From Escherichia coli (GTDB lineage Bacteria; Pseudomonadota; Gammaproteobacteria; Enterobacterales; Enterobacteriaceae): 64,000 nt of DNA. The notes beneath the pieces were generated by a model. It was given only the letters and a program-made list of their open reading frames with translations, was not told where the DNA came from and did not search any database. Below are positions 61,954-64,000 of this stretch, piece by piece; the first letter of the stretch is position 1, and each line of letters opens with the position of its first letter. Position numbers and translations under genes: made by a program. The stretch lies in the NCBI RefSeq assembly GCF_003334355.1, contig NZ_QOWP01000013.1. The stretch is one strand, 5' to 3'.

Positions 61954-62041
61954 GGTGAGGTGTCCGAGTGGCTGAAGGAGCACGCCTGGAAAGTGTGTAT
62001 ACGGCAACGTATCGGGGGTTCGAATCCCCCCCTCACCGCCA
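61954..62041 (+). tRNA. serX: tRNA-Ser (long variable arm, anticodon GGA)
   Basis: 88-nt sequence GGTGAGGTGTCCGAGTGGCTGAAGGAGCACGCCTGGAAAGTGTGTATACGGCAACGTATCGGGGGTTCGAATCCCCCCCTCACCGCCA with 7-bp acceptor stem, T-arm GGGGG-TTCGAATC-CCCCC and encoded CCA. Confidence 0.95.
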
Positions 62042-62465
62042 TATTTAAAAAAAAGCCCGTACGAAAGTACGGGCTTTTTTTTCGTATATTGCACACACCG
62101 GGGGGGATGAGAAGCCCCGACCGGGGGTCGACAACTGGCGACAGCCAGTTGGACAGACCGTGAACGCAGTGAGCGGGCTGCCCGCAGGGCGAGCGAAGCG
62201 AGTCAATCCCCCCCTCACCGCCATATTTAAAGAAGAGCTCGTACGAAAGTACGGGCTTTTTTTTCGTATATTGCACACACCGGGGGGATGAGAAGCCCCG
62301 ACCGGGGTTCGACAACTGGCGACAGCCAGTTGGACAGACCGTGAACGCAGTGAGCGGGCTGCCCGCAGGGCGAGCGAAGCGAGTCAATCCCCCCCTCACC
62401 GCCATATTTAAAGAAGAGCTCGTACGAAAGTACGGGCTTTTTTTTCGTATATTGCACACACCGGG
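62023..62465 (+). repeat. Tandem direct repeat (~181-182 bp period, about 2.4 copies), each copy beginning with the last 19 nt of tRNA-Ser
   Basis: aatccccccctcaccgcca occurs at 62023, 62205 and 62386; each is followed by a near-identical terminator hairpin and structured spacer; copies differ by a few substitutions and a 1-nt G-run length change. Confidence 0.9.
62047..62082 (+). terminator. Symmetric rho-independent terminator after serX
   Basis: aaaaaaaa-gcccgtac-gaaa-gtacgggc-tttttttt perfect hairpin with A/T runs on both sides. Confidence 0.85.
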
Positions 62466-62596
62466 TGCCCCCGCCCACGTCTGTTAGGGCGAGGGGAAAT
62501 CGTGCACATCAACTGTCTGGTTACTCAGTCAACAATCAAAATGCGCAAGAGAGTACAGAACATATATGTATTATCTGGTCACTTCCTATCACTTCC

Positions 62597-63583
62597 TCAC
62601 TTATTAAAATGCCCCCAACGGAAATACATGTCACATGCCATCATAAAATCGTTATGCCAGAGGAATCGACAATAGAAAAAATAGTAAATTAAGCACGGTA
62701 CATAGCAGAGTAAAAAATAGGCTTCAAACCAAATCCGCCATTCCACAAGCGTTGCCAATACCGACACCAGCGTAATCCACATCACTTCAATAACCAGCAA
62801 TATGAATAACCGAAGCCAAAGCGGCTTGGCAAAAAAGGTCGACAACGCATTTTCACTGGAGAAAAACAGATCGATTTCCTGCAAAAAAAGCCTGCCCAGA
62901 AAAGCGTACCGCTTGGAGAAGCGCAGAAAAAACAGATTAATCGCCAACACTACGCCACAAAGAATGAGCAATGCAATTATCGATTTAAACGTTAACCACT
63001 GCCCCTCTGTCACAAAAGAATCACTGTTACGCAACGGGCTGATAGTAAGCAGGTTAACAACCGTTGAGATGCACACCGAAAGCAGCACATAGCGAGTCAG
63101 ACTTTTATATTTTACTTTTTTCGCTACTGAAATAGCGACCTGCTTGACATAACTGGTGCGGATCATCCGAAACAGCAGAAAGATGACCAACGGCCCAAGT
63201 AACGAAATCAGGAACAGCGCATATAACGAGGGTAGAAGCTGGTATAGCCCCCAACTCATTGCACTCAACATGATTAACGACAGAAATCCTGCCACCAGAG
63301 GTTGTGTAAGAAATAATTCTATTTTGTGGTTCTGCTTTTTCTTAAACCACGAAAAATCGATATTCTTCGTGACGCATTTATAAGCCCAGTACGCCTTGAG
63401 ATCAAAAATAAAATTATACAGCACCAGAGCCAGAATCCCACTAACTACACCAATATCCTCTGATGGAAAAGTAAACCCTGCATTCTTCTAATAAAAGCCT
63501 ATCAGAATAAGTCCAATAGCATAAATGTATATCAGATTTCGTTTATCCTGAAAGCGAATAAAAGTTAAATAATCAGGAATCAT
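62597..63583 (-). pseudogene. ycdU: ycdU-like polytopic inner-membrane protein ORF, 329 codons, interrupted by an in-frame TAG at codon 32
   Basis: ATG at 63583 and stop at 62597 span 987 nt in one frame; the only interruption is TAG at 63488-63490; downstream 275-codon ORF (track 62597..63424) is in the same frame. Confidence 0.6.
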
Positions 63584-63923
63584 TTGAATACCTTTGCATC
63601 ACTAAATGCTTTACGACAATGCATAACTCGTTGCTGATCCACGCCAGCAAAATCATTTAACATATTCCCCAAATAGGGCTTATTACTTATTTCAAGGAAA
63701 GCTACCGGGGTTGGCATATTCAGAAATGTATCGAGAGATTCAGTCCATTTCACCGTATGAGTTAAGTGTAATGAGAGATTTTCTTTGATAATTGACGGAG
63801 CGACCTCGCTTTTTGCTGTTACGTTCATCAGAACCTGATGCTCTGGCGAAGCGATATCCAGTCCGGCAAGATAATCGCGCATTGCCTGAACGCCGTCTTC
63901 CATCAAACGCGTGTGCCAGGCAC
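63580..63923 (-). pseudogene. ymdE: C-terminal fragment of a FabD-like acyltransferase, 5' end truncated by the IS element
   Basis: Translated frame aligns with the C-terminal third of FabD in this window (e.g. VKWTESL vs VQWTKSV); frame runs up to the IS3 inverted repeat; stop TGA overlaps the ycdU ATG (ATGA). Confidence 0.6.
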
Positions 63924-64000
63924 TGATCTTACCCAGCAATAGTGGACACGCGGCTAAGTGAGTAAACTCTCAGTCAGAGGTGACTCACATGACAAAAACA
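63924..64000 (+). mobile_element. insE: Left end of an IS3-family insertion sequence (terminal inverted repeat and first 4 codons of orfA), continues beyond the window
   Basis: Begins TGATCTTACCCAGCAATAGTGGACACGCGGCTAAGTGAG, which I recognise as the IS3 left inverted repeat, followed by ATGACAAAAACA (MTKT) as in the IS3 orfA start. Confidence 0.7.

Follow-up and report, generated by a model that had tools for sequence, protein, structure and literature searches.

An IS3-associated remnant of a FabD-like acyltransferase gene beside ycdU in Escherichia coli

The window, a 64,000-nucleotide stretch of Escherichia coli DNA, exhibits in its last part a ghrA - serX - ycdU - IS3 region that is 99.9% identical to K-12 and to other phylogroup-A-like genomes. 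Upstream of ycdU, positions 63580-63921 (minus strand) translate into a stop-free frame of 113 aa (AWHTRLMEDGV...DAKVFK) followed by a TGA codon. A mechanically called ORF extends over 63580-63939, its TTG start being gained solely by running 16 nt into IS3. We refer to the fragment as ymdE'. Its stop codon had been reported in a first-pass annotation to overlap the start of ycdU as ATGA, and this overlap is indeed seen at 63583-63580 (minus strand); the same 4-nt overlap is annotated at the intact E. coli acyltransferase-ycdU loci. The features of the locus, with the related loci described below, are listed in Table 1.

Table 1. Features at the ymdE'-ycdU locus of the window and at related loci in other genomes
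Feature	Position	Strand	Description
ymdE' pseudogene remnant	63580..63923	-	codons 201-313 and TGA stop of a 313-aa FabD-like malonyl-CoA:ACP acyltransferase
ATGA overlap	63580..63583	-	ymdE stop TGA 63582-63580; ycdU start ATG 63583-63581
ycdU	62597..63583	-	328 codons; polytopic inner-membrane protein; last gene of the cluster; TAG at codon 32
IS3 left end	63924..64000	+	inverted repeat from 63924; orfA start ATG at 63989
FAS/PKS-like cluster	L001 20118-34911; L008, L009, L011 1-11002; L014 1-11020		includes three family-less proteins
IS-bounded truncation	L005 6001-7787		529-nt remnant
IS-bounded truncation	L004 7101-8887		putA-side deletion
IS-bounded truncation	L017 7660-8871		half IS3
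IS-bounded truncation	L016 5001-5797		44-nt remnant

The boundary of the fragment is sharp. The IS3 inverted repeat (TGATCTTACCCAGC...) begins at 63924 of the window, where the plus strand reads TGATCTTACCCAGCAATAGTGGACAC..., the left inverted repeat of IS3; in genomes free of the IS, homology to the window ends exactly at 63923. The window contains the first 77 bp of the element and ends inside it. Those 77 bp are identical to the IS3 of K-12 BW2952, which is 1258 bp long with matching inverted-repeat ends and a transposase annotated with 'programmed frameshift' (j2). The element thus exhibits the features of IS3, namely terminal repeats TG...CA, a length of about 1258 bp and orfA/orfB with a programmed frameshift. 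In RefSeq, the pseudogene feature (L002 7101-7457, corresponding to 63580-63936 of the window) runs 13 nt into the inverted repeat, so that its annotated 5' end is not gene sequence.

A scan against Rfam detected a tRNA-Ser and an RtT repeat only, with nothing overlapping the ymdE' fragment. Those two lie at 61954-62468, where the tRNA-Ser gene (serX, 61954-62038) precedes an array of tandem 181-nt repeats, each of them reproducing the tRNA 3' end together with a hairpin and a T-run. One of the copies (62268-62404) attains the Rfam gathering score for RtT. The RtT copy number varies with the strain, three features being annotated in K-12 BW2952 and one in strain 510016.

The fragment had been described as the C-terminal part of a malonyl-CoA:ACP transacylase-like protein, alignable with the FabD encoded at 8948-9877 (minus strand) of the window. 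A direct BLASTP comparison of the two yields 23% identity over 71 residues with an E-value of 1.9, which is not significant alone, and we set this alignment aside as evidence for homology. The likeness to FabD holds by way of a profile and an intact homologue. The fragment matches the NCBIfam fabD profile TIGR00128 (E-value = 2.3e-9, 37.1 bits, profile positions 197-264 of 290), and it is identical at 111 of 113 positions (98%) to residues 201-313 of WP_115801845.1, an intact protein of 313 aa annotated as "ACP S-malonyltransferase". Both matches bear out the C-terminal assignment. The intact protein exhibits 28% identity to E. coli FabD (E-value = 8e-25) and matches Pfam Acyl_transf_1 (PF00698, E-value = 1.8e-24) as well as TIGR00128 (E-value = 1.8e-52). 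Its nearest solved structures are PksC (5dz6, 1e-32) and DisD (4.6e-32), then FabDs including that of E. coli (1mla, 1.3e-22), all of which supports an acyltransferase fold. Its TIGR00128 score of 178.7 bits lies below the curated fabD equivalog cut-off of 260.9 bits, which makes it a paralogue and not the housekeeping FabD. Judged by these profiles, the intact protein is a member of the Acyl_transf_1 superfamily and not a FabD equivalog.

In FabD, S92 is the nucleophilic serine, R117 the arginine binding the malonyl carboxylate and H201 the catalytic histidine. These residues pair with GHSVGE, R122 and H203 in the alignment of the intact protein. The fragment has kept the histidine: its third residue (AWHTRLM) pairs with H201 of FabD (PSHCALM). 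It starts at residue 201 and lacks the serine of the GHSxG motif, which the intact proteins of O157 and Enterobacter have as GHSVGE. The malonyl-binding arginine (R122 of the intact homologue) also belongs to the deleted part, and so do the oxyanion-hole region and the N-terminal 200 residues, amounting to two thirds of the fold. Having lost its nucleophilic serine and its malonyl-binding arginine, the remnant, as far as its sequence tells, cannot act as an acyltransferase. As to the intact protein, we infer its malonyl specificity from the conserved arginine alone.

Genomes without the IS, which the first-pass annotation had proposed as the place to look for the whole gene, do contain it. Of 5426 complete E. 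coli genomes, 390 have an uninterrupted gene of 942 bp at this locus. Most of these belong to O157:H7, and the others include MEI003; the gene of ERL06-2503 is 100% identical to that of named O157:H7 strains. At the intact loci of ERL06-2503 and MEI003 it belongs to a cluster, the genes of which all share one strand and are either separated by small gaps or overlap by 4 nt. The cluster begins with a two-partner secretion adhesin and its TpsB, followed by AcpS, an SDR reductase, a FabZ-family dehydratase and an ACP. It continues with a GcvT-family aminomethyltransferase-like protein, an 852-aa double ketosynthase, a 407-aa ketosynthase, a hypothetical protein and a LolD-like ATPase. Another hypothetical protein, a LolC/E-like permease, a LolA-like (TP_0789-like) protein, a 462-aa hypothetical protein, the acyltransferase and YcdU complete the series, the acyltransferase being the penultimate gene and YcdU the last. 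Beyond the adhesin, toward dgcT, lie a fimbrial operon, an SDR gene, a winged-helix regulator and an EAL-domain gene. The FAS/PKS-like cluster is common to E. coli O157:H7, three Enterobacter species and one more distant genome.

The fragment had also been taken as a hint of a lost lipid or polyketide-type modification module. The presence of AcpS, SDR, FabZ-like, ACP and two ketosynthase genes upstream of the intact gene on the same strand bears this prediction out. The intact gene product would be a discrete malonyl-CoA:ACP acyltransferase, presumably loading the cluster's own ACP. The loaded ACP would then serve the two ketosynthases, the SDR ketoreductase and the FabZ-like dehydratase, and the product, perhaps an exported lipid, would probably be passed to the LolCDE/LolA-like exporter. 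A search of the literature on the product of the cluster, including the FAS-like genes of the island by locus tag, returned no experimental work. The label given to the island in the original O157 genome paper was reportedly "adhesin, polyketide or fatty-acid biosynthesis".

The fragment and ycdU had been proposed to derive from an acyltransferase-membrane protein operon, and the pair is kept in Enterobacter and in more distant bacteria. Relatives of YcdU are rare, with 47 representatives in 1.84 billion proteins. Where the contig extends far enough, the gene directly upstream of the YcdU relative always encodes a YmdE-like acyltransferase. In Enterobacter cloacae, E. mori and E. sichuanensis the whole cluster from the ketosynthases to the acyltransferase-YcdU pair is syntenic, with 50-52% identity for YcdU, 70-73% identity for the acyltransferase and a 10-nt spacer between the two. 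GCA_000770305.1 has a YcdU of 27% identity (phmmer) with the full cluster and a TPS-domain gene. On two metagenomic contigs the acyltransferase gene adjoins that of the YcdU relative, one of them with the ATGA overlap. A YcdU homologue of 34% identity, at locus L013, has this overlap. By this conservation of gene order the acyltransferase-YcdU coupling is real. Copies of ycdU 99% identical to that of E. coli were also found on two tiny contigs, L007 (1615 bp) and L010 (458 bp), from assemblies labelled Flavobacterium psychrophilum (MAG) and Roseibium aggregatum; these are most likely E. coli contamination.

YcdU belongs to no NCBIfam or Pfam family; its sole hit, to Pfam PSII_Ycf12, was judged spurious. 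Its predicted structure (model m21e208736fda) is a confident all-helical membrane fold for which no relative was found among solved structures. Its neighbours in AFDB are uncharacterised proteobacterial proteins only, one being labelled DUF975. In the window, ycdU has a T at 63489 in place of the C of K-12 BW2952 and strain 510016, changing codon 32 (63488-63490, minus strand) from TGG to TAG (W32*). This amber codon divides the gene into ORFs of 31 and 275 aa. A T at this position occurs in none of the 2595 complete E. coli genomes having the stretch, so that the amber codon is peculiar to this strain or arose as an error of sequencing. If the base call is correct, neither of the two genes remaining from the operon is intact in the source genome, and both count as pseudogenes. 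One further difference between the window and BW2952 in ycdU, at 62744, is silent.

The fate of the missing part of ymdE is seen by comparing K-12 BW2952 with an O157-type contig. The homology stops at ymdE nt 344 and resumes beside dgcT, 10 bp past this gene. In place of the intervening 33,053 bp, K-12-type genomes have the 1258-bp IS3, one end of which is separated from the dgcT stop codon by 10 bp. The element is flanked by cac on one side and aaa on the other (cac/IS3/aaa), which is not the 3-bp target-site duplication expected of a simple insertion. From the 33,053 missing bp and the lack of a target-site duplication it follows that a deletion removed the gene and that no insertion split it. 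The far IS3/dgcT junction and the 33-kb loss are here read from genomes that are 99.9% identical to the window over the stretch and identical to it at the near junction. The earlier statement that the 5' part of the gene was cut off by an IS element is thus exact for the boundary at 63924 and too simple for the event, 33 kb being missing in these near-identical genomes. The FAS/PKS-like, adhesin, fimbrial and grvA/EAL genes are absent from the K-12-type genomes having the junction.

We conclude with high confidence that the fragment is the known pseudogene ymdE (b1028), in which an IS3-associated deletion has left the last 344 nt (3' end) of a gene that stood next to last in a type II FAS/PKS-like operon. 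In the lineage of the window, an IS3 copy located 10 bp past the dgcT stop would have become joined directly to ymdE nt 344. The lost interval would comprise two thirds of ymdE, the remaining operon, the two-partner secretion adhesin, the fimbrial operon, grvA and the EAL gene.

The truncated states of the gene form a series across the species. With the whole 942-bp gene as query, some part of it was found in 2625 of the 5426 complete E. coli genomes. Besides those with the full-length gene, about 727 genomes carry a 3' remnant of 529 nt (1117 genomes having nt 345-529, minus the 390 full-length) and about 1500 carry the 344-nt remnant of the window type; about 2800 genomes have no part of the gene. 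The endpoint shared by the window and K-12 is thus 185 bp further into the gene than that of the 529-nt state. In strain J-8 the 529-nt remnant is accompanied by the flanks gcc/IS3/aaa, with an IS3/dgcT junction identical to the K-12 type and 32,868 bp missing; the IS3 of J-8 differs from the K-12-type element at 3 of 1258 positions. Strain 13E0780 exhibits the 529-nt junction on one side of IS3 and a deletion to the putA region on the other. In E110019 the 529-nt remnant adjoins half an IS3, and in strain 600 44 nt of ymdE adjoin an IS1 fused to a truncated pgaB'. ycdU is annotated as intact in each of the inspected truncation loci (L005, L004, L017 and L016).

The simplest history would be that of one IS3 resident beside dgcT, from which successive IS-associated deletions eroded the island. 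The deletion itself may have occurred by IS3-mediated adjacent deletion or by recombination between two IS3 copies. Queries with chimeric junctions retrieved, from the 5426 genomes, neither an intact island with IS3 at the dgcT site nor a simple IS3 insertion at ymdE nt 344 or nt 529. As such intermediates are missing among these genomes, we infer the order and the mechanism of the events.

Recombination between two copies is a variant of this reading in mechanism only: an IS3 near dgcT and one or more IS3 copies inside ymdE would have undergone homologous recombination and excised the island. Its end product would be the same, a single IS3 with non-matching flanks. IS3 is a multicopy element, occupying a median of 3 places per genome, and the deletion in 13E0780 reaches out from the other end of IS3 too. 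However, this route requires that IS3 entered ymdE at least twice, independently and in the same orientation (at nt 344 and at nt 529), and that each of these insertions was resolved with one and the same copy on the dgcT side, and the presumed two-copy intermediates occur in none of the 5426 genomes searched. We therefore consider it possible, leaning to the doubtful side.

A different proposal is that the remnant is a functional unit under selection, for example as a small C-terminal polypeptide or as a leader required for the translation or transcription of ycdU. Goldstone et al. 2016 reported the enrichment of ymdE-ycdU in mastitis isolates and speculated on a residual function, no further decay being seen (PMC4951805). 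Besides this published suggestion, the frame is stop-free and differs from intact genes by 0-2 aa, the ribosome-binding region of ycdU is inside ymdE', and ymdE and ycdU are retained together in about 2600 genomes. The divergence is nevertheless too low for this argument: with merely 0-5 substitutions in 342 nt relative to intact genes, the absence of decay is uninformative. The counts of synonymous and non-synonymous changes are of the same kind, the pN/pS of ycdU resting on a dozen changes, too few for a test of selection after the deletion. Against a function stand also the loss of over half of the fold, and with it of the nucleophilic serine, the arginine and the oxyanion-hole region, as well as the lack of an ATG or GTG start of its own outside IS3. 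A simple scan of the minus strand upstream of ymdE'/ycdU gave no candidate promoter-like site, the overall count being not above that of shuffled sequences. Other lineages have trimmed ymdE to 44 bp, and in the window ycdU itself has a nonsense codon. A function of the remnant thus appears very improbable.

That IS3 simply split a complete gene, with the 5' part of ymdE and the operon continuing past the element, agrees with the literal sense of "cut by an IS element" and with a window that ends inside IS3, but is hardly credible, as dgcT follows beyond IS3 in every inspected genome with exactly this junction, the flanks (cac and aaa) show no 3-bp duplication, and a query joining the right end of IS3 to ymdE nt 342-541 retrieved no genuine junction from the 5426 genomes. 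Two apparent matches to the chimeric junctions were rejected, corresponding to the 529-bp remnant beside half an IS3.

A broader interpretation of the locus would take the conserved acyltransferase-YcdU pair as a marker for the end of an uncharacterised pathway by which a lipid or polyketide is made and exported, with YcdU as a new-fold membrane component having an independent role. The pathway would combine the type II KS/ACP/KR/DH enzymes, the GcvT-like folate-type enzyme and the LolCDE/LolA-like exporter. Roughly 2200 E. coli genomes have lost the rest of the cluster and keep ycdU. An independent role of YcdU, if true, would explain why every class of IS-mediated deletion seen stops short of ycdU. 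We regard this combined proposal as unlikely.

The feature itself is already known: RefSeq annotates it as a pseudogene, it bears the name ymdE in K-12, and it has been treated in the literature. In MG1655, ymdE has been described as a pseudogene foreshortened by IS3, with longer homologues of 945 bp outside phylogroup A (PMC4951805). It thus carries little weight as a discovery and serves better as a worked example, in which a 344-nt scar and a start/stop overlap correctly predict a lost island of 33 kb. The locus also points to an apparently unstudied biosynthetic cluster in O157:H7 and Enterobacter, as regards its product, the GcvT-like enzyme and YcdU. The nested series of IS3, half-IS3 and IS1 deletions documents the stepwise erosion of an island by insertion sequences.

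The closest known counterpart is the ymdE (b1028)/ycdU (b1029)/IS3 arrangement of K-12. The window exhibits no difference from BW2952 over 63580-63923, with the same IS3 junction and the same ATGA overlap, and shares the RefSeq annotation given to BW2952, 'ACP S-malonyltransferase, incomplete, missing N-terminus'. It differs from K-12 by the TAG at codon 32 of ycdU, which is absent from K-12 and from 2595 other genomes. The counterpart of the missing DNA is O-island 47 of EDL933, an island of 31,727 bp (z1528-z1556) that includes the ToxR-family regulator GrvA (PMC8565820); the dgcT-ycdU interval of the intact loci agrees with it in location and in gene content. ymdE' is 98.5% identical in DNA sequence to the 3' end of the acyltransferase gene in the dgcT-ycdU interval of the O157:H7 type. 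The DNA missing from the K-12 type (33,053 bp relative to ERL06-2503, which has an extra copy of the IS1203 family there) matches this island in position and approximate size. In contrast to O-island 47, the window keeps 344 nt of the acyltransferase gene and ycdU, the biosynthetic, export, adhesin, fimbrial and regulatory genes being gone.

At the protein level, the intact homologue resembles FabD (1MLA) in its Acyl_transf_1 signature, in the GHSxG serine, arginine and histidine at aligned positions, and in its length (313 versus 309 aa). Unlike FabD, to which it is 28% identical, it is slightly closer to PksC and DisD, and its gene belongs to an accessory cluster that also encodes a separate ACP and AcpS, whereas the copy in the window is the non-catalytic third of such a protein. 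The acyltransferases of trans-AT PKSs, such as PksC of bacillaene and DisD of disorazole, would be similar to the intact protein as free-standing ATs serving a dedicated carrier protein. In contrast to the trans-AT PKSs, the E. coli cluster has stand-alone KS, ACP, DH and KR of the type II style and no modular megasynthase.
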